Shown piece by piece: positions 1,829 through 52,412 of a stretch of DNA of 64,000 nucleotides. Source of the DNA: a virus (Duplodnaviria > Caudoviricetes); the IMG/VR virus record IMGVR_UViG_3300032225_002102, positions 32,001-96,000 of that record, one strand, 5' to 3'. Both the position numbers and the translations under genes were made by a program. The notes beneath the pieces were generated by a model, which ran no database searches, had not been told where the DNA came from, and worked only from the letters and a program-made list of their open reading frames with translations. Positions within the stretch are counted from its first letter, which is position 1. The number at the start of each line of letters is the position of its first letter.

Positions 1829-2303
1829 TACACTCTAATTTTTTAATTAATTTATCTGCTAAATTATAATATTCTGATGCTTTACTTACATCTGTTTTTA
1901 CTACATTAGATCCTGCTCTTAGTAATAAATCTACTTTATATAGTTTGTTAATTTCTTCTTCTGTTAAATCTTGTAACAAATATTCATTAAATTTGTTACT
2001 TAATTTCGTATGTCTAAGATAATTAAATTGTTTATATAAATTTGCATTTGGTGCTACTGAATATCTAAAAGTGTAAACACCATCTGGAAATTCTATTGCA
2101 TCATTAAAACAAAGTTTACCTAATGTAAGTACGTTTACTTGATCTGGTATAATATACTGATGATATACTTCATCTACCAAATTAGGGAATGTAACTTCCA
2201 CTACAGGATTAATTGGGTATTCGTAATACTCAGATTTATCCACAAATATAATAGAATCTGTAGAACCATCCTCATAAATAGTAAAATTTAATTTATGTCG
2301 CAT
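1815..2303 (-). CDS. Putative tail hub-type virion protein
   Basis: FPDGVYTFRYSV motif; synteny downstream of auxiliary capsid gene as in crAss-like phages. Confidence 0.45.
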   Translation of the reverse strand: MRHKLNFTIYEDGSTDSIIFVDKSEYYEYPINPVVEVTFPNLVDEVYHQYIIPDQVNVLTLGKLCFNDAIEFPDGVYTFRYSVAPNANLYKQFNYLRHTKLSNKFNEYLLQDLTEEEINKLYKVDLLLRAGSNVVKTDVSKASEYYNLADKLIKKLECNGNM

Positions 2304-2316
2304 TTTATATAAAATA

Positions 2317-2342
2317 AGAGGGAGGATAACCTCCCTCTATTA
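2317..2342 (-). terminator. Intrinsic terminator after auxiliary capsid gene
   Basis: agagggagg/cctccctct stem with T-rich tail on minus strand. Confidence 0.7.
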
Positions 2343-2353
2343 AAACATATCAC

Positions 2354-4684
2354 TTATAAAACAACTGCTTTCAATTCTGATCTTCCTGCACTCAATACAA
2401 GTTTATTCATTAATGTTTCAAATGATCTACCTTGACTTTGTGCAATAAAGAATTTATAATCTGTATATTCTTGATTCTTCAAGATATACGCATCTTTCTC
2501 TTGTCCTCTGTGTTTCAATCTTAAAGTATAAACATCATACATTAAGTGTCTCTTAGAAATTGGTTGGAAACCATTAATTTCATTCACAAAAGGATTGTTA
2601 GAGAATTTCTTACCTTCATAACCTGCTAATGCTGCAATTTCTGCTTCTTGTACGTACTCACCACTTGTTCCCAAGTTAAATGAAAGACGTTGCAATACTG
2701 TAGAATAAGTTTTAGTTTCATCACAAGGATTATTTGAGTAATCCAAAGAGTGAATATTAACTTGCAATAATACAGGTTTAATTTCATTTGGATGCCAGTT
2801 TGTATAACCTACAGTAGTACAATCTGTAAATGTTTTATTAAACACCGCAGTTTCTAATACTACACCACAAGCACAACATGGTTCGGTAGGAGTTGTTGGT
2901 ACAGTACAGTTTGGATAATTTGTAACTGCTTTGTAATCTTCCCACTGATAACCCATAAAGCTAGCAGGTTTACCAAATGTATATCTTTCTTCTAAACCAC
3001 AATCTAGTGTAGCAACACAATCAGATGTAATTTCTGTTACGTAACTAGCAGCACATTCTCCACGTACAGTTTCATTTGTAATGAAAGCTGGTGTTGTTGC
3101 TGTACCTGCTAAGTTTGTAGTTGCATTTACAATTGTAGGAGTTGCTAAAGTTGTTCCACCTACTGCTAAAATACCTGCTGTACCACTTGCCGTAATTGTA
3201 ATTCCAGCAGCTAAATAAGCAGCAGCATTAGCAGTAATAAAGTTATCACGAGTTACTGTTAAACTTGTAGCAAATGTAGCTGTTCTAGCAACACCACCAA
3301 TTGTTACAGTTGCTGTACCTGAAGTACCAGTAAGTGTTAGAACTGAAGATTTCTTAGTTAAACTTGTTTGTGTTTGTAACGCAACTGTTAAATCAGGATA
3401 AGCTGCTTGCAAATCCGCTAATCTATTTCCTAATCCACATTCTTTATCTGGAAGTGTAATACGGAATTGTTTAACTGTTTTATTACAAGTTTCACATGTT
3501 GACCATACCTTAGTAATAGTTTCAACTAAACATTGTTTTCCTTCTACTCCAATAATTGCGTATTCTGAAACACCTGCAAGTTGACTTGCAATAGTAGCAT
3601 CAGAAGTAGTGGTAGCAACTTTTACCAAATAAGTATCACCTAAATCAATACTTGAACCTACTTTAGAACTTGTAATTACACCTGTAATTGTAGGTAAAGT
3701 ACCATTGTAAAGAATTTTTACTTGAACAATTTTAACTCCATCTACAAGAGTAGAGCTAGTAGGACAAGTAGGACATGTATCACATAAAGGATACGTGTAT
3801 CTATTCATCGTGAAGTTTGCTGGTGCTGATGCACTTCCAAGTTGCCAGAATGAATAAACTGAATATCCATCCAAACTAGATTCACGAGTAATCTTTACAT
3901 TAGGATAAGCAGCTGCTAATTTACTAATTGTAGATACACCATCATCTTGAATCTCTAATTGATACTTCTTATACTCTGTTAATGTTGGAGTTAGAGCATC
4001 AGTAGTACATTTTTTAATTTTACTAGCTGTAATAAATTTGTTCAATGCAACTTGAACTAATTTACCACCTACTTCTGCAAATAAATTAGTACTATTTACT
4101 TTAGCTACAATTGCATCTGCAATAACATCACATGGAATATTACCACATGTATCTACTGCTGTACAATCTGATGGACACAATGTTTTATCAATTACTAAAC
4201 GATGTACAATTCTGTTTTTACCAAAGAAACGCTTGATGGGTTCTCCTTGTAAAATCAAATTAACATGAAGTGGTTTAGTATCCAACAATCCATTTAGAGT
4301 ACGTGAAGCATCTACTCCATCATAACCAATTGCAATCTTTTGTGTTTTAGCAGCACCTTGATCTGCTTTTTGTCCACTCCACGCAATAATATCAGAAGCT
4401 TCAAATTCAATTGTTGCTTTTGCTTTTTTAGTATGTCGAGAAAGAGCTGGTGATAGTTGTCCACTTGAAAAAGGAACACCTGTTTTTATGATAAAACGTT
4501 TGTTAGTTTTAAAACTTGGTGAAGCTAATGATACAGGTTCTCCTGCTGAATAATCATCTGCTGCAAAAACACCAAATTGTTCTGCTTCCAAACTTGATAA
4601 CTTTGCTCCTAAACTAACTGCTCCAGAGTTAGATACAAAAGGAGAAATAAATGCTTGCTCTAATTGACCAATAAATGAGTTCAT
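2354..4684 (-). CDS. Large virion protein, probable auxiliary capsid/decoration protein
   Basis: 776 aa, Thr/Ala/Cys-rich, own terminator, synteny MCP-X-ring-auxiliary capsid. Confidence 0.55.
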   Translation of the reverse strand: MNSFIGQLEQAFISPFVSNSGAVSLGAKLSSLEAEQFGVFAADDYSAGEPVSLASPSFKTNKRFIIKTGVPFSSGQLSPALSRHTKKAKATIEFEASDIIAWSGQKADQGAAKTQKIAIGYDGVDASRTLNGLLDTKPLHVNLILQGEPIKRFFGKNRIVHRLVIDKTLCPSDCTAVDTCGNIPCDVIADAIVAKVNSTNLFAEVGGKLVQVALNKFITASKIKKCTTDALTPTLTEYKKYQLEIQDDGVSTISKLAAAYPNVKITRESSLDGYSVYSFWQLGSASAPANFTMNRYTYPLCDTCPTCPTSSTLVDGVKIVQVKILYNGTLPTITGVITSSKVGSSIDLGDTYLVKVATTTSDATIASQLAGVSEYAIIGVEGKQCLVETITKVWSTCETCNKTVKQFRITLPDKECGLGNRLADLQAAYPDLTVALQTQTSLTKKSSVLTLTGTSGTATVTIGGVARTATFATSLTVTRDNFITANAAAYLAAGITITASGTAGILAVGGTTLATPTIVNATTNLAGTATTPAFITNETVRGECAASYVTEITSDCVATLDCGLEERYTFGKPASFMGYQWEDYKAVTNYPNCTVPTTPTEPCCACGVVLETAVFNKTFTDCTTVGYTNWHPNEIKPVLLQVNIHSLDYSNNPCDETKTYSTVLQRLSFNLGTSGEYVQEAEIAALAGYEGKKFSNNPFVNEINGFQPISKRHLMYDVYTLRLKHRGQEKDAYILKNQEYTDYKFFIAQSQGRSFETLMNKLVLSAGRSELKAVVL

Positions 4685-4770
4685 ATAATTTTATAGAGAA
4701 AAGATTATTCGTTTAGTATTTATCTCTTTATCCTACCAAACGTGTTTACAAATAACGGTAAACAAACGTT

Positions 4771-5427
4771 TTATTTTTGTTCTCTTTCTTTAGATGTTTG
4801 AAAACCAAACTGATCTTCAAATTCTCTATTGATTTCTGTAACTACTCTGTTAATAATTTCACCTGATATGTATTCCGAAACATCTGGATCTATATCTTCT
4901 GATTCTCTACCATCATAATGCTTATATCCCTTCATATCAATTTTTCTAGGACTTTTATAATAACTTATAACAGTTTTATCTATTTCAAAATTATCTTTAT
5001 AAATAATAACCCCTCTATCTACTATTTCTCCCAAACCTCTTTCCCAAGCTAAACTTGGTTTTGTAAATTTATCTTCTAAATAAATATTTACATTTGGTTT
5101 TTTAATATAATTATATAAAATACATTTACCTACATAACTTTTACTTTCTGCTGGTAATATTGTATATAAATCTGAAGGGATTTCATATACTGAATATTCT
5201 TTATTATTTTCTATTCTAGTTAATTCTAAATCTTTAACTAATAATTCGAAAATAATAAATACATTATCTGAATTGTTATTATTGTCAACATAATCATTTA
5301 ACCATCGTAACGCTTCTCTATTATAAAGGTAAACAAAATTATGTTTTTCAATATTTACATTTTTATTTTGATTATTTTTATTTAGTAATAAAGAAAACTC
5401 ATAATATAGTTCGTTTACATTTCTCAT
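4771..5427 (-). CDS. Putative tail ring / head-tail adaptor protein
   Basis: Helical N-terminus, D.F.KP and YYKSP motifs, two genes after MCP. Confidence 0.55.
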   Translation of the reverse strand: MRNVNELYYEFSLLLNKNNQNKNVNIEKHNFVYLYNREALRWLNDYVDNNNNSDNVFIIFELLVKDLELTRIENNKEYSVYEIPSDLYTILPAESKSYVGKCILYNYIKKPNVNIYLEDKFTKPSLAWERGLGEIVDRGVIIYKDNFEIDKTVISYYKSPRKIDMKGYKHYDGRESEDIDPDVSEYISGEIINRVVTEINREFEDQFGFQTSKEREQK

Positions 5428-23759: not shown

Positions 23760-24092
23760 ATGCAAAAATTAAATTTAAAAACAAATGTACAATTGAATGG
23801 TAAAGTACTTTATACTACTTTGAACCTTTCAATTGGAGTGCATCACTTATGCAGTGTAACATTACATAATGCTGATGTAAAAAGTATTGAATTTCGTTTA
23901 TCTTTACCTAAAGCATGTGGAGAAAATGTAATGGAATATGTATATTTTACTGATAATTTGGAATTACAAGGATTAAGTTCTTTCCATATCTACCAGTTAT
24001 ATAAAGAATCAGTTGCAAGATACTGGAAAACATCTCCTTACAAAGAGGTAATGAAAAATTATCATTTAAGTAAAGCTAATAAATATGCTTAA
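23760..24092 (+). CDS. Hypothetical protein downstream of hammerhead
   Basis: ORF track. Confidence 0.6.
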   Translation: MQKLNLKTNVQLNGKVLYTTLNLSIGVHHLCSVTLHNADVKSIEFRLSLPKACGENVMEYVYFTDNLELQGLSSFHIYQLYKESVARYWKTSPYKEVMKNYHLSKANKYA

Positions 24093-24279
24093 AAGATAAT
24101 TTATCGTACTGATACGGTAAGGAATAGATAATTTATCTGCTATTTTAAAGAATGGTAGGTAAATTATCTGTTTTAATGATGGAAATGGGAGGTTTAATAG
24201 TTGGCTAATTCACATTCACCACTATTCAACTCAATCAGATATTAAAGAATTTAAAAAACATAACCAAATAATATAGCAA

Positions 24280-24459
24280 ATGGAAACAGATAGTTTATAT
24301 TTCCAACTCATTCAAGAAATTGCTAATGAGTTAATTAAATCAGAACAGTATGGCTTAGTGGATTTCATTCAAGGTAGAATGGATGAGATTACAATGATTG
24401 AAGATGCTTATATGGATAATCAGCTTTCAATTTTAGAAAACCAATCAACTGAATGTTAA
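24280..24459 (+). CDS. Small acidic hypothetical protein (59 aa, not in track)
   Basis: METDSLYFQLIQE...; abuts next gene. Confidence 0.55.
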   Translation: METDSLYFQLIQEIANELIKSEQYGLVDFIQGRMDEITMIEDAYMDNQLSILENQSTEC

Positions 24460-24460
24460 T

Positions 24461-24754
24461 ATGAAACTATTTACTGTACATCAAAACACCTATACCGAAG
24501 GTAACTTTGGTGATTTAATGTATGCAGGTGCAAAATTAATTGGTGTTTACACTAATTATGAATCTGCTAAGAAGATTGTAGATGATTTTGTTTCTATTAC
24601 ATATTATGCTCAGTTTGGAACAGGTGAGCAAGATATGTATATAACGGAAATAGAATCTGATGTGCAATTATCTGAACCTAATACTGATAATGGTAGATAT
24701 TATTCAGATGATGAAGATGAGTATCAAGAAGAAAACGATTTAACTTTAAAATAA
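24461..24754 (+). CDS. Acidic hypothetical protein
   Basis: LIGVY...ESAKK motif common in small phage ORFs. Confidence 0.6.
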   Translation: MKLFTVHQNTYTEGNFGDLMYAGAKLIGVYTNYESAKKIVDDFVSITYYAQFGTGEQDMYITEIESDVQLSEPNTDNGRYYSDDEDEYQEENDLTLK

Positions 24755-24762
24755 AAATAATT

Positions 24763-24969
24763 ATGTCAAACTTCAGAAAGTTAATTGAGTTCATAAGCAT
24801 AATGTTTATGAGTTATTTGATAGTGAATTTTGTAATCTCTATAATTGGAGATTATAGCTCTTACAAGGAATGCTTGAGAGATAGTTATAACATTTATTTA
24901 TTGTTTCTTGTGTATTGGTGGATTCCAATATTCAGAATGATAGATATAGATGAACAACAATACAAATAG
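24763..24969 (+). CDS. Small two-TM membrane protein
   Basis: Two hydrophobic segments. Confidence 0.55.
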   Translation: MSNFRKLIEFISIMFMSYLIVNFVISIIGDYSSYKECLRDSYNIYLLFLVYWWIPIFRMIDIDEQQYK

Positions 24970-24970
24970 C

Positions 24971-25192
24971 TGTTATAACTTGTGCACAGGTTGTAATAAT
25001 ACCAGAGGAAGTGCTGGCTTAGCTAATTAAGGTGTGTTTAACTTGAACAACAGAATTATTGGCATCAGAGAGTAATCTCTAATATAAGTTAGTCCATTGT
25101 AGCTAACACTGTATAGGTTACAGAATAACTTAAAGGAAATAATTCTTCCTTGACAACAAAGAGCTAAGCATCTCTATTGTAAAAACTGCTTA
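24971..25192 (+). ncRNA. Candidate structured ncRNA with two pseudoknots
   Basis: About 7 hairpins incl. GUAA tetraloop; 3' loops complementary to 25017-25024 and 25052-25060. Confidence 0.6.
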
Positions 25193-25219
25193 ACTTTTTA
25201 ACTTTAAACAAATAAACAA

Positions 25220-25699
25220 ATGAACTTAACATTATTTTTTAGATTGATAACAATGTCAATCTTCCAGAAAACAGTTATTTATAATAAAAAGGATTCAATG
25301 TATAGACAAATGAGTTATGACAACACTCATTTTTATTGTCCAATAGTCTACGCAATGGATGGTTTTAATGTATCATTACAAATCCATCATGCCAATTACT
25401 GCTCATCAGAAAATGGGTATAGAGAATTAGGACATTCAATGCAAGATGTTGAATTTGGGTTTCCTTCCCAAAATGAAGAGATTATGTTTGAATATGCAGA
25501 AGGGTACGGTTTACCTGAATATACCTTTGATGAAAATGGAGAATATAGCGAAACACCTTTTAACGTATCGTTATTTGATATAACTAAAGAGGTAGGTAGT
25601 ATTCCTCTGGACATAATGGAAGCTGTGTTTGAAAAACATGGTGGAATTGATTGGGAAAAAACCATTTCTGTTGAACAATTTAATCAAAAAGTATCATGA
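25220..25699 (+). CDS. Conserved phage hypothetical protein
   Basis: DGF.VS.Q....YC...VE.GFPS...HGGID pattern seen in phage proteins. Confidence 0.65.
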   Translation: MNLTLFFRLITMSIFQKTVIYNKKDSMYRQMSYDNTHFYCPIVYAMDGFNVSLQIHHANYCSSENGYRELGHSMQDVEFGFPSQNEEIMFEYAEGYGLPEYTFDENGEYSETPFNVSLFDITKEVGSIPLDIMEAVFEKHGGIDWEKTISVEQFNQKVS

Positions 25700-26022
25700 G
25701 CAACATAGTTTATTGGACAATGGCAAATGGTGAAAAAATAGATATAGATAGCATGGGGATTAAACATCTCCGTAATACTCTCAAGATGATTGTTAACAAC
25801 AGTCAAAAAAGAAGAGAAATAATCCTTAATGGAGATATGGCAGAACAGTTCAATTTTATCCACGAAGAAAACATTGAAGAACTTGAATACTAAAATTTTA
25901 AAAATAGCTAGTATATTTTTTATAATATTAAGTATACTCAGTTTCTTCAAAGGAAACAATGTAAATTTTTTTATAACATCATTCTTATGGATTAATGCCA
26001 TGGGATATTTAATTAAAGAAAA

Positions 26023-26634
26023 ATGAAAAACTTAAGTTTAGCTACATTAAGTGTAGTTCTTTTTGTTCTAACTTGTTCTTGTTCAAATGCAGAACAAGTT
26101 AAAATAGTGAAAGATAATCCAGCTTTTTCTCCTACACAAAAATATCAGATAATGGTATGGAATATAAAAAAAGCTGAAAATTACAGATCTGATATTTATA
26201 AGTGTCAAGCTAAAAAAAAAACAACTGGATGGGGATTCACCAATGTTAAAAGTGTCAAAAACATCCAACATGCTGATATTATTTTAAGAGATATGGTAGA
26301 AGAGTTACATAGTATAGTAAAAAAAGAGTACCCTAAGCAAACATACCTTCAACAAGCAGCAATAGTAAGCTTAATATATAATACTGGAGATTTAAAAGGT
26401 ATTAAAAAATCAAAATTTGCTAAATCTTTAGTAAAAAATGATATAGATAATGCTGTAGCAGCTTTTAAAGCTTGGAATAAGGTAAAAATTAAAAAAGGTA
26501 AATACATTGTAAGTAAAGGATTAGTAAAACGTAGAACTTATGAAGCAAAATTGCTTAACAATACGTTTACTATGAATGATTACAATAAACTTAAATCTGA
26601 GATTTCTCAGATATACAAAGAAAATAGATTTTAA
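26023..26634 (+). CDS. GH24 lysozyme with N-terminal signal/anchor
   Basis: E-x8-C-x5-T then GWG; AAIVSLIYNTG; GLVKRRTYEA; hydrophobic N-terminus ending TCSCS. Confidence 0.8.
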   Translation: MKNLSLATLSVVLFVLTCSCSNAEQVKIVKDNPAFSPTQKYQIMVWNIKKAENYRSDIYKCQAKKKTTGWGFTNVKSVKNIQHADIILRDMVEELHSIVKKEYPKQTYLQQAAIVSLIYNTGDLKGIKKSKFAKSLVKNDIDNAVAAFKAWNKVKIKKGKYIVSKGLVKRRTYEAKLLNNTFTMNDYNKLKSEISQIYKENRF

Positions 26635-48941: not shown

Positions 48942-50951
48942 ATGATTTTAACAAAAGATGAAACTATTGAAAGTTTTTCAATAGGTAACACTACAATTAA
49001 AGGTACAATTGATGCTAATAAAGTTGGAAAAATGTTTCAACTATTGAGTAATCTTTATAGTGATAAAGAAAGTATTGTATTACAGGAAATTACTGCAAAT
49101 GCTCAAGATTCTTACAAAAGGATAGGTAAAGAAGGAGAAGTAAATATTAAGTTTGATTCAACAGATAGAATTTTACATATCATAGATAAAGCAGAAGGAA
49201 TATCTCCTTATGTATTTGAGAATTATATTACTAAGTTAGGTAGTTCAAGTAAAGAATTAGAAGATGATTCAGCAGGTATGTTAGGTATTGGATTTTTCAG
49301 TGGTTGGTGTATTACAAATTGTGTTTATTTAACCACTGTTTACGAAAACGTAAAATACATATATTCGTGTACAAAGAGAGATTATGAAGAACCAGAATTT
49401 AATTTGTTATTAGAAGAAGAAACAAATTTAGAAAATGGAACTGATTATTGGTTTTATTTACCTAAATCACAATACTCCTTTAAAGATACAGAAAAAGAAA
49501 AGTTTGAAAAAGCATTAAATAAGTTACGTTATTTTCATAATGTTACTGTTGAAGGATTGAAGTTTAATAATAATTACAATATCTATCAAGGTAAAACGTT
49601 TGTATTTAATGAAAGTTATTTTAATTCTCAATATGATAGAGATTATAAAGAATTAGAAATATGTTTTGGTAATACTCCTTACCCTATTAATTGGGAAAAG
49701 ATAGATATTCCTAAAATTTCTATTCCAGTAGCTTTAAAATTTGAACTTAATGAACCTTTGATGATTTTACCTTCAAGAGAAGCATTAGGTTGGAATAATA
49801 TCACTATTGATGCAGTTAAGAATAAAATTATAGATTTTGTACAAGAAATATCTAGTATTTATAAAGAACAAACAAAACCATTTGATAATATTTTAGATTA
49901 TCTTGAAGCAAGAGATAATAAACAAAATATTAAAATTGGTAATTCTGTTATAAATATTAGTAGTTTAAAATTAGAATCTGATTTAAAGTACAGTAAAATT
50001 GCTCATTTAGATATTAAAATCCCAACAGATAAAGATCATATATTTATAGAATTTGTTAAAACTTGGAATAAACTTTATAAAAAGAAAAGTAAACCTTATG
50101 TGTATGATAATGCAAAATTTTATTATTCTGAGCAAGGTTTAAAAAAGAGTAAAACTTCACAAATTGATTATGATTGTATATTAAATTATGTAACTCCTGC
50201 TTATGTAAATCATAGAGATTATTTTTATACTTCTCCTTTATTTGCAAATGGTTATCCTGATAATGCTTATGATCAAATTAGAGAGTTTTTAGGGTATGTA
50301 AGAGAAGATATTAAAGCTAGATTTTTAGATTATGATTCTATTGTTCCAGCTAAAAGAAATACTAATTTTGTAAAAAGAACAAATGAAGTTATTTTAGCTG
50401 CTTTTAATGGAGACGTTAAAAAGTTAGATTATAATATTAGTAAGTTTATTGCTCCAAAGTATTTATTTCTTACTTCTGATTTAGAAGAGTATAATGAAAT
50501 ATGTAAATATACTCAATCTTATTTTGGATTTACTAAAGATAGAAAAACATGTATTATAAATGTTATTTATACAGCTAAAAAGAACTATCATCTTTTTAGT
50601 GGTTGTAACATTATAACTTTAGAAGAGTGGTTTAAATCTGATATGTTTACCAATGCTTTTAGAAGAAGTATTGATGCTTATAACTATAATCAATTGAATG
50701 GTTATCTTTTTAAAGAATGGTTAAATAAGTATAACAAACGCTTGTATTATATTCATAAGAATACTAAAACAAATTATAATAAAATAATTGTTGATAAAGG
50801 ATTAGAATTAAAAATTGCATATACAGATAATTATATTGATTTAAGAAAACATTATGATATTTATATGAATATTGAAAACAACAAAATATATGGAAAAGAT
50901 AAAATTATTAATTTCTTACGTAAAAAACTAAATAAATGTCAGAATCAGTAA
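48942..50951 (+). CDS. rIIA: rIIA-like protein (GHKL ATPase)
   Basis: LYSD....E...NA.D, D...G, GSSSK, G.LGIG. Confidence 0.8.
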   Translation: MILTKDETIESFSIGNTTIKGTIDANKVGKMFQLLSNLYSDKESIVLQEITANAQDSYKRIGKEGEVNIKFDSTDRILHIIDKAEGISPYVFENYITKLGSSSKELEDDSAGMLGIGFFSGWCITNCVYLTTVYENVKYIYSCTKRDYEEPEFNLLLEEETNLENGTDYWFYLPKSQYSFKDTEKEKFEKALNKLRYFHNVTVEGLKFNNNYNIYQGKTFVFNESYFNSQYDRDYKELEICFGNTPYPINWEKIDIPKISIPVALKFELNEPLMILPSREALGWNNITIDAVKNKIIDFVQEISSIYKEQTKPFDNILDYLEARDNKQNIKIGNSVINISSLKLESDLKYSKIAHLDIKIPTDKDHIFIEFVKTWNKLYKKKSKPYVYDNAKFYYSEQGLKKSKTSQIDYDCILNYVTPAYVNHRDYFYTSPLFANGYPDNAYDQIREFLGYVREDIKARFLDYDSIVPAKRNTNFVKRTNEVILAAFNGDVKKLDYNISKFIAPKYLFLTSDLEEYNEICKYTQSYFGFTKDRKTCIINVIYTAKKNYHLFSGCNIITLEEWFKSDMFTNAFRRSIDAYNYNQLNGYLFKEWLNKYNKRLYYIHKNTKTNYNKIIVDKGLELKIAYTDNYIDLRKHYDIYMNIENNKIYGKDKIINFLRKKLNKCQNQ

Positions 50952-51065
50952 AAAGAGATTTATTACAAAAAGCATATTTAATTTTGGATAAAGCTCTTCA
51001 AGAAAAAAAAATAAAAGAAGTGCTAAAACAAATGGAAATAATTAATAATTTAAATATTAAATTAG

Positions 51066-52412
51066 ATGCTGACAATTAATGTTATTGGAAAAAACTGTAA
51101 TATAGTTTTAGATGGTGTATTATACACAGTTATAACCTCAGAATCATTTGATTTAAAAAGGTTACAATCTTATGGATTAAAATACTATTACAACTATAAT
51201 CTATCAAAAGATTACTTTGATGAGTTTGGAGAGCATATTACAGAGCAAAGAAGAGATATTTTAAAGACTTATGCTGAATTATATAAGTTAAAAATTAAAA
51301 AATTAATCTTTAGCCAAATAGAAATTCAAAATAATGCTAAAACTGCTAAAGATTTTGAAAGAAAGCTTGAAAAAAGAAAGCTAGAAGAAGAAAAGTATAA
51401 TCTTAAACGATTAAAAGATAATAAAGTAAAATCTTTTAGTAATTTTTCACAACTTGAAATAAGAAATAATGAAGTTTACTTAAAAGGTTTGAATTTTATT
51501 TTACCTGATGATTTCCTTAAAGTTATTCAAGAAGTTGAGAATCCTCAACCATATATTAACTTTATGTATAACCTTAGTTCTAATCCTAATGAATATGTTA
51601 GAAATAATGTGTTTACTTGGGTTAATAATAATCAGTTTAAGATTACTGAAAATGGTTATATTTATGGGGTAAGATGGGTTGTCAAAAAGAATGATATTCC
51701 TGAACTTACTCAATTTGTACATTCTGAATATATTAGAAAGAAATTACAAAAGAAATCACCTAAGAATTATTCTGTTTATAGTTTAGAAGAAGAAAGTGAT
51801 TATAGTATTAGGATTTATTATAATATTGTTGAAAATTCTAAAATAGCAACAGAAAAATTTCAATCTACAAATCATACTTTAATAGGTAATCTTTATGATT
51901 TATTCAATAAAGAAGAAGATTTAGAATTTACTGATAATTATACTCAAACTTTTAAAATTAAATTAGGAGAAGTTGTAAGTATGAATAGAGAAGATTGTGA
52001 TGAATCTTCTACTGAATGTAGTAGAGGATTACATTTTATCTCAACAAATCATGCTATAAATAATAGTTTTGGAGATACTTTGATAAGTGTACTTGTTAAC
52101 CCAAGTATGATTGTATCAATTCCAAATGATAATTATCCTAAAATTAGATGTTGTGAATATTTTCCTTATTCTATCTTAGATATTTCTACAATTGAAGAAT
52201 TTAAAACATCTGATTTAGTAATAGATGATACTGATTTTGAATTGATTAATGTATCTAAGATTTATGATAGTTTGAGTTATAAAACTAACTTATATAACTC
52301 ATCTAATAGTAAAGAAAGATTACAAGAAATTAAATCAAAACTTCAATCTTTTAAAGTAAAACCCGTTGAACCTGAACAACTTGCTGTTGTAAACCGATTA
52401 ATTAAACTATGA
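51066..52412 (+). CDS. rIIB: rIIB-like protein
   Basis: NF..NL..NP, ITENG, M.R..CD....CSRGLH, VNP...VSIP.D...K.RCCEY. Confidence 0.85.
   Translation: MLTINVIGKNCNIVLDGVLYTVITSESFDLKRLQSYGLKYYYNYNLSKDYFDEFGEHITEQRRDILKTYAELYKLKIKKLIFSQIEIQNNAKTAKDFERKLEKRKLEEEKYNLKRLKDNKVKSFSNFSQLEIRNNEVYLKGLNFILPDDFLKVIQEVENPQPYINFMYNLSSNPNEYVRNNVFTWVNNNQFKITENGYIYGVRWVVKKNDIPELTQFVHSEYIRKKLQKKSPKNYSVYSLEEESDYSIRIYYNIVENSKIATEKFQSTNHTLIGNLYDLFNKEEDLEFTDNYTQTFKIKLGEVVSMNREDCDESSTECSRGLHFISTNHAINNSFGDTLISVLVNPSMIVSIPNDNYPKIRCCEYFPYSILDISTIEEFKTSDLVIDDTDFELINVSKIYDSLSYKTNLYNSSNSKERLQEIKSKLQSFKVKPVEPEQLAVVNRLIKL

Follow-up and report, generated by a model that had tools for sequence, protein, structure and literature searches.

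Compensatory base changes between two phage lineages indicate that the gap between ORF68 and ORF159 holds a real folded non-coding RNA encoded on the plus strand. Our preferred reading, which we hold tentatively, is that this RNA is a stand-alone, dispensable phage cassette of ~200-230 nt. We rank this reading first because the element moves as a unit, is replaceable, occupies a position common to RNA genes, ends in a generic terminator and precedes non-homologous genes in its two lineages. Counting against it, no promoter is recognised in or upstream of the element, which as an intercistronic part of an mRNA fits cis-acting roles equally well.

Genomic setting

The window, that is, the whole stretch of DNA analysed here (64,000 nucleotides), spans 32001-96000 of an IMG/VR virus record that is 129 kb long, with a completeness estimate of 87%; the window's G+C content is 25%. 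The minus strand carries structural genes up to ~20.6 kb, and the long plus-strand block thereafter encodes DNA polymerase, helicases and rIIA/rIIB-like genes. At 48942-52412 the rIIA-like gene (669 aa) stands beside the rIIB-like gene (448 aa), with PHROG E values of 4.9e-20 and 4.1e-24, respectively. ARAGORN predicts zero tRNA or tmRNA genes in the window and zero in the 129-kb genome. Across the whole genome a Shine-Dalgarno-like motif precedes only 2 of 114 crude gene calls, gene starts instead follow an A-rich leader that carries TTAAA at -16 to -12, and TAnnTTTG-type promoter words lie upstream of the ORF159 homologue in two relatives (L008 and L010). Taken together, the missing Shine-Dalgarno motifs, the leader and the promoter words suggest, indirectly, a Bacteroidota-type host.

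The RNA element occupies a 250-nt gap between two plus-strand genes and has a G+C content of 0.34, against 0.26 for the window. Its immediate surroundings are as follows.

24763-24969, plus strand: ORF68, a small two-helix hydrophobic protein of 68 aa, from the open reading frame list
25200-25219, plus strand: A/U-rich 20-nt leader with a TTTAAAC motif, reaching the ORF159 start codon
25220-25699, plus strand: ORF159, a conserved phage protein with more than 220 homologues

ORF68 has no Pfam or PHROG match, and its homologues fall into five clusters. A Phage_lysozyme gene, ORF203 (26023-26634; Pfam E 1.4e-17), lies 1-3 kb downstream of ORF68 in all relatives, and the N-terminus of its product has an invariant Cys20 after a hydrophobic stretch, resembling a lipoprotein signal. 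ORF68 and ORF203 may form a holin-endolysin-type module within the early block. ORF159 is likewise without a Pfam or PHROG match, and its look-alikes are only viral hypothetical proteins. The leader in front of it is too short to fit a separate promoter.

A folded RNA with five covarying hairpins

The initial annotation had described this gap, from its letters alone, as a compact pseudoknotted RNA, and every complementary word on which it drew is present at its coordinates. The 9-nt loop AATAATTCT (25138-46, closed by AAGGA/TCCTT at 25133-37/25147-51) exactly complements AGAATTATT (25052-60), and AGCTAAGC (25162-69) exactly complements GCTTAGCT (25017-24). The G-U-rich 12-bp 5' hairpin is located at 24971-82/24987-98, and AGAGA-GTAA-TCTCT (25067-80), GTTAG/CTAAC (25088-92/25103-07) and CTGTA/TACAG (25109-13/25119-23) are all found. 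The gap does lack a long ORF: stops occur throughout the six frames, the plus strand of the gap contains no ATG, and no small ORF is conserved in the element. By themselves the complementary words are not beyond chance, as a perfect complement of at least 9 nt arises in 17% of 300 dinucleotide shuffles of 24971-25192, and one of at least 9 nt plus a second of at least 8 nt in 6%. In folding, the plus strand has a z-score of only -2.3 and the minus strand one of -1.8.

The comparative data do go beyond chance. A covariance model built from the window's core and run on Logan contigs identifies a divergent homologue (79.3 bits, E 3e-22) in four contigs, L022-L025, whose copies are identical; the L022 copy shares 75% identity with the window overall and 72% in the core. 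A three-sequence alignment (A4: window, L004 and L022) was analysed with RNAalifold and by separate pair counts, and defines the following hairpins and one linker.

24971-24998, plus strand: H0, 12 bp (three of them G-U) capped by a UGCA loop; 5' boundary of the conserved cassette
25002-25017, plus strand: small 5' hairpin CCAG/CUGG, in the RNAalifold consensus and mutually exclusive with the P1 helix described below
25034-25051, plus strand: P2a, GU-GUUUA/UGAAC-A-AC with an ACU loop, 7 pairs
25049-25064, plus strand: invariant 16-nt linker AACAGAATTATTGGCA, containing 25052-60 and identical in the window, L004 and L022
25067-25080, plus strand: P3, 5 bp with an invariant GNRA tetraloop, GUAA
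25088-25107, plus strand: P4a, gttag/ctaac extended to 7 pairs, loop CAUUGU
25109-25123, plus strand: P4b (ctgta/tacag), with a compensatory C-G to U-A change and one pair broken in L022
25133-25151, plus strand: P5, whose 9-nt loop AAUAAUUCU (25138-46) complements 25052-60

Homologue covariation, proposed by the initial annotation as a check, yields compensatory double changes at 8 pairs, each within one of the five local hairpins (P2a 1, P3 2, P4a 3, P4b 1 and P5 1); RNAalifold counts 9. Controls with slid partners contain 0-1 such pairs, and a count of 8 is reached in 0 of 500 shuffles. Because the independent lineages number only two, each covariation represents a single evolutionary event. 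P2a shows a U-A to A-U exchange with zero pairs broken, P3 a one-sided change besides its two double changes, and P5 one broken pair besides its compensatory one. Both sides change at three pairs of P4a, one of which is C-A in the window, C-G in L004 and L017, and U-A in L022. The window's hairpins contain 5 G-U pairs against 1 C-A, which fixes the plus strand as the RNA strand. The GNRA, gttag/ctaac and ctgta/tacag hairpins are among the five that carry compensatory changes; the local hairpins read from one sequence are the covarying ones, and these changes mark the structured plus-strand RNA as genuine. The single-sequence minimum-free-energy fold of the window was discarded, as its helices GCUAAU/AUUGGC and UGUAGCU/GGUUACA are lost in L022.

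Identity in the stems is 38/58, against 63/76 in loops and linkers. Variable stems with conserved loops and linkers imply that the stems need only pair, while the single-stranded parts are read by sequence. Such constraint is not expected of a mere nuclease barrier, and bears on the improbable reading of the gap as an mRNA processing or stability element. On that reading the structured spacer would serve the upstream gene as its 3' UTR, blocking exonucleases or offering RNase cleavage sites and setting different levels for the two cistrons; as a free RNA it would do nothing. The close placement of H0 behind the upstream stop codon (2 nt in the window, ~30 nt in L022), the lack of a recognisable promoter in the co-oriented gene block around the element, and the ending in a hairpin followed by a U-run are all consistent with it. 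Against it, loops and linkers outconserve stems, with 15-16-nt invariant single-stranded blocks and a GNRA loop that is kept, and relatives have a simple terminator module alone at that place.

H0 itself carries no double change: L022 has U-A in place of two of its U-G pairs and has lost two pairs. At the DNA level it is a near-perfect 24-bp palindrome, unique within the 129-kb genome, and its half-site AACTTGTG recurs in the 16-bp palindrome that L014 has in the corresponding place. These palindromes could in principle be protein-binding or recombination sites (H0, for example, an operator), or the whole gap neutral filler without function. The chance level of the word complementarities alone fits such a reading, and so does the 1.9-kb mosaic block shared with L003, where identity may reflect recent exchange. 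Eight compensatory double changes in five hairpins of 5-7 bp and strand-specific G-U pairs are not predicted by it, and the element is single-copy with no terminal repeats; we regard it as highly improbable.

A plausible loop-linker pairing

The P5 loop sits inside an invariant 15-nt block, GGAAATAATTCTTCC (25135-49), and this block and the 16-nt linker are the longest invariant stretches of the core. All 9 of the 9 pairs between 25052-60 and 25138-46 are invariant in every sequence, so that the pairing carries no covariation signal either way. Its duplex energy is -5.6 kcal/mol, and the helix of the minimum-free-energy fold that competes for the linker (GCUAAU/AUUGGC) is not kept in L022. From this exact and invariant complementarity, formation of the loop-linker pairing is plausible.

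The pairing could equally be intermolecular. By analogy with GOLLD, ROOL and the short phage manA motif, for which self-assembly was recently demonstrated, the P5 loop and linker might pair between molecules and the ~200-nt RNA might self-assemble into a defined homo-oligomer (ring, cage or filament), an idea that we consider a long shot. If true, the RNA would be a small member of the self-assembling phage RNA class, located at the genomic position that GOLLD takes in a related phage.

A second candidate long-range pairing and a possible attenuator

The second pairing would join the 5' region of the core to a terminator-like tail.

25004-25023, plus strand: 5' strand of the candidate helix P1 (AGAG, UG, CUUAGC), including GCTTAGCT
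25158-25199, plus strand: terminator-like module, made up of an AGAG/CUCU stem around CUAAGCA, then AAAAAC, UGCUUAAC and a U-run

The long terminator-like hairpin pairs 25158-70 with 25187-99, and the P1 3' strand (25163-75) lies inside this hairpin. RNAalifold favours the hairpin; across four contexts, 8 of its 12 pairs are invariant and 2 change one-sidedly to G-U. The gcttagct/agctaagc pairing of the initial annotation shrinks from 8 bp to 6 bp in L022, where 2 of the 8 pairs break with no compensatory change. Both lineages can form P1 in a bulged register (AGAG/CUCU, UG/CA, CUUAGC/GCUAAG), which folding predicts for the L022 RNA truncated ahead of 25187. In its topology the tail may be either an H-type pseudoknot or a bistable hairpin pair.

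The tail module also occurs in L014, L132, L134 and L123 with no RNA core, in the last three behind an unrelated conserved gene, and its small inner stem covaries among these coreless copies (AGAG/CUCU, AGAUC/GAUCU, AAAAC/GUUUU). The copies lie at L014:~2915-2955 and, in L132, L134 and L123, on the minus strand of each locus. In the recurring tail a small stem encloses CUAAG(C/U)A and is followed by AAAAC, UGCUUAA and a run of 5-8 U; conservation of this degree at the sequence level is puzzling for a terminator. Because the P1 3' strand falls within such a generic terminator module, the second pairing is either a spurious coincidence or an antiterminator, and in the latter case the CCAG/CUGG hairpin would be the third element of an attenuator. 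That hairpin has one compensatory change in L022 (G-C to A-U) and one pair lost, and it forms as well when the terminator hairpin is forced.

The main rival to the cassette follows from the antiterminator option, namely a cis-acting, riboswitch-like transcription attenuator in which the five-hairpin core is the sensor. In its compact state (pseudoknotted, possibly with a ligand or factor bound), 25004-23 would pair with 25163-75 and sequester the 5' arm of the terminator, allowing read-through into the downstream genes; in the other state the CCAG/CUGG hairpin and the terminator would form and transcription would stop. We consider this reading somewhat unlikely, and the evidence on it is divided.

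Several properties of the element are those of an attenuator. The P1 3' strand is the terminator 5' arm in both lineages, the ~13-bp complementarity of P1 withstands 7 substitutions in its 5' strand by means of bulges, a wobble pair and register shift, and the competing small 5' hairpin is the one with a compensatory change. The two states are near-equal in energy in both homologues (-45.1 versus -42.3 and -31.2 versus -33.7 kcal/mol). A conserved structured sensor domain is found, with five hairpins and 8 compensatory changes, and its conserved linkers and covarying stems form an aptamer-like pattern. The downstream gene begins 20-27 nt past the U-run, and transcription must cross the element to reach it. 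Other properties fit an attenuator poorly. P1 itself has no compensatory change, and its CUCU has a local AGAG partner in a stem that is present and covaries in the coreless tails. An 11-16-nt loop and an internal mismatch weaken the terminator-like hairpin, which a terminator scan does not flag. The genes downstream are not homologous rather than consistently related, close relatives live without the element, and the gene context suggests no ligand.

Homologues and mobility of the cassette

Part of the case for a stand-alone cassette comes from its distribution. The ORF68-gap-ORF159 order of the window recurs in two relatives, an IMG/VR contig (L002-L004) and a contig from Logan (L017). The gap is 99.2% identical in these relatives (L003), versus 74% for ORF68 and 94.6% for ORF159, and the sole core change between the window and L004 and L017 is A25101G. 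The block common to the window and L003 is a 1.9-kb mosaic piece, and the high identity of the gap could reflect either constraint or recent recombination or exchange.

In L022-L025 the RNA lies upstream, not downstream, of the ORF68 homologue (68% identical; P0125), which is therefore an upstream neighbour of the RNA in the window and a downstream neighbour in the L022 lineage. The 5' hairpin H0 and the 3' tail are attached to the RNA in both lineages, H0 starting 2 nt past the upstream stop codon in the window and ~30 nt past it in L022. Between the tail U-run and the next start codon are 20-27 nt in both the window and L022, a spacing which requires that the downstream gene be transcribed through the element. 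That gene is ORF159 in the window, L004 and L017 and the non-homologous ORF68 homologue in L022-L025, a difference that argues against gene-specific control in cis. About 1 kb downstream of the RNA homologue, L022 carries a TnpB/IS605 OrfB-family gene (3991-5085; Pfam HTH_OrfB_IS605, OrfB_IS605 and Cas12f1-like_TNB); the window has no gene of this family near the RNA.

Other relatives lack the RNA. L014, with an ORF159 of 79% identity, has an 80-aa ORF in place of ~24950-25160. This ORF (MIEKILMVHKL..., L014:2665-2907) is apparently frameshifted or split in L020 (~3207-3440), and its 5' end contains the perfect 16-bp palindrome CACAAGTTAACTTGTG, of which the half-site is the one shared with H0. 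The element is not a decayed copy of the 80-aa ORF, to which it has no protein or DNA similarity. The RNA is also absent from the viral records of related phages (G001-G008 examined, three of them 98-100% complete).

The RNA family is rare: searches for further copies leave it at three sequence variants, spread over two lineages. A blastn search of 24000-26500 against 50,697 phage records gives no match. In IMG/VR, two exact words of 19-20 nt retrieve the known relative only; the invariant 16-mer occurs at 75 loci, none of which matches the model besides the known relative L003 (not itself re-searched); and the tail 18-mer occurs at 19 loci, none with the core. The two-block pattern of the loop pairing has 5 matches in JGI metagenomes and 4 in GTDB genomes, which look like chance occurrences in unrelated, apparently coding sequence. 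Synteny through ORF159 relatives, lysozyme relatives and the whole records G001-G008 uncovers no further copy, and neither do the remote homologues of ORF68 from an exhaustive HMMER search, near which no RNA copy lies. The L022 gene upstream of the RNA has no homologues and thus offers no synteny lead. By these comparisons of gene order and sequence, the element moves as one unit between intergenic sites of related phages.

Interchangeable occupants upstream of ORF159

The position upstream of ORF159 homologues holds other RNAs in other phages. In L006 a tRNA (2398-2468, 55 bits) lies ~33 nt upstream of the ORF159 homologue. The Logan contig L016 has a ~1040-nt non-coding gap (1962-3001) upstream of a 64%-identical ORF159 homologue, and GOLLD (RF02032) matches it at 2297-2693, scoring 61.8 bits (E 2.4e-14) where the gathering score is 150; this gap probably holds a divergent GOLLD-like RNA. 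Directly upstream of the ORF159 homologue in L005 is a structured element of ~160 nt (660-820; MFE -51 kcal/mol, z -3.3), which recurs at L016:~2860-2975 with shared ends (CCAAGGGATAGCAGATGTAATA ... TATTACATCTGAGTGCAGAGGG) and a variable interior. It has no Rfam match, and its sequence is unrelated to the window's RNA. Upstream of the ORF159 family a tRNA, a GOLLD-like RNA, another unclassified RNA, a protein gene and the window's RNA stand in for one another, an interchange that ties small unclassified RNAs to GOLLD and tRNA cargo and their biology.

Comparison with known RNA families and functional classes

The RNA cannot be assigned to a known family, as the initial annotation had stated; Rfam and ARAGORN bear this out. 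Rfam 15 (4227 covariance models, the criterion being each family's gathering score) gives no match at gathering thresholds over the whole window. At E up to 10, a search of 24700-25400 returns nothing on the plus strand over the element; the matches in this interval are noise only, on the minus strand or inside ORF68. The tRNA covariance model does not match the element and scores 55 bits on its positive control, the L006 tRNA. On these Rfam and ARAGORN negatives, a degenerate tRNA or tRNA cluster was rejected. The GOLLD model has no match in the window at E up to 10, where the same tool gives E 2.4e-14 for L016.

Two of the classes to which the RNA had been likened find no counterpart in the data. 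A ribozyme-like character is not borne out, as the self-cleaving classes (hammerhead, twister, pistol, hatchet, HDV-like and others) are unmatched at E up to 10. The same applies to an antitoxin-like one. Duplex energies with the ORF68 mRNA, the test for a type I antitoxin, equal those of shuffles (z 0.05 and 0.13), with no excess complementarity to neighbouring mRNAs, and the RNA is missing beside 3 of the 6 ORF68 homologues (L014, L020 and L021). The test for a type III, ToxI-like antitoxin finds no tandem repeats in 24900-25260, and no endoribonuclease toxin gene of such a system is nearby.

Further candidates were rejected. An antisense regulator of ORF68 or ORF159 is not supported by any excess complementarity, nor is one of another genome site, excess complementarity being absent across the genome. 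A MITE-like repeat is ruled out, because the element is single-copy and has no terminal inverted repeats.

Discussion

The stand-alone cassette that we favour consists of H0, the five-hairpin core (P2a, P3, P4a, P4b and P5) with its conserved linkers, and the terminator-like hairpin. We infer that it would be transcribed with the plus-strand early block, within a longer transcript, and that its 3' end would be set by the terminator-like hairpin, necessarily a leaky one if ORF159 is to be expressed. The invariant P5 loop would pair with the invariant linker at 25052-60 and lock the hairpins compactly. The folded RNA would then work in trans, as an accessory RNA that binds protein or RNA in the manner of other orphan stable RNAs of phages, and not as the controller of one neighbouring gene; a search for a trans target finds no excess complementarity elsewhere in the 129-kb genome. 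Were the attenuator reading true instead, the element would represent an orphan riboswitch-like class in a phage of the suggested Bacteroidota-type host.

Orphan structured phage RNAs are numerous, and each well-delimited example backed by covariation is a usable experimental handle. The present one offers a ~155-nt core, clear module boundaries, two natural compensatory variants, relatives that are natural 'knock-outs', with a protein gene or nothing where the RNA would be, and two precise candidate long-range pairings.

Transcriptional ON riboswitches such as the pbuE adenine riboswitch have a P1 3' strand that is also the terminator 5' arm. The window's RNA resembles them in its multi-hairpin junction, its candidate loop-linker pseudoknot, a candidate closing helix competing with the hairpin and U-run downstream of it, and linkers that are conserved while stems covary. 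It differs in its non-homologous downstream genes, in a P1 that does not covary and in a generic terminator module that occurs free of the sensor.

The stable RNAs species 1 and 2 of phage T4 (rnaC/rnaD) lie in the tRNA region and derive from a longer early transcript. The window's RNA would resemble them as a stable phage RNA from a longer early transcript, at a position of tRNA genes; the window's phage, in contrast, has no tRNA genes.

The packaging RNA (pRNA) of phi29 self-assembles through loop contacts. Among short phage RNAs, the manA RNA motif also self-assembles through loop contacts, into cages (bioRxiv 10.64898/2026.07.01.735769). The likeness lies in short length (<200 nt) and in loops or linkers with complementary sequences; in the window's RNA, a 9-nt loop is the exact complement of part of a linker. 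The window's RNA has an Rfam match to neither, and an oligomer is only conjectural for it.

The large ornate phage and prophage RNAs GOLLD and ROOL have been described by cryo-EM (bioRxiv 10.1101/2024.12.08.627333). They are orphan, dispensable structured RNAs of phages, as the RNA described here is taken to be; they usually neighbour tRNA genes, and their conserved loops engage in RNA-RNA contacts. The GOLLD-like match in L016 lies in the very gap that holds the window's RNA. At ~200 nt rather than 400-800 nt, with another architecture and no model match, the window's RNA is not a member of either family. It is an unclassified family of a familiar kind, that of orphan structured RNAs in swap-prone phage RNA positions.
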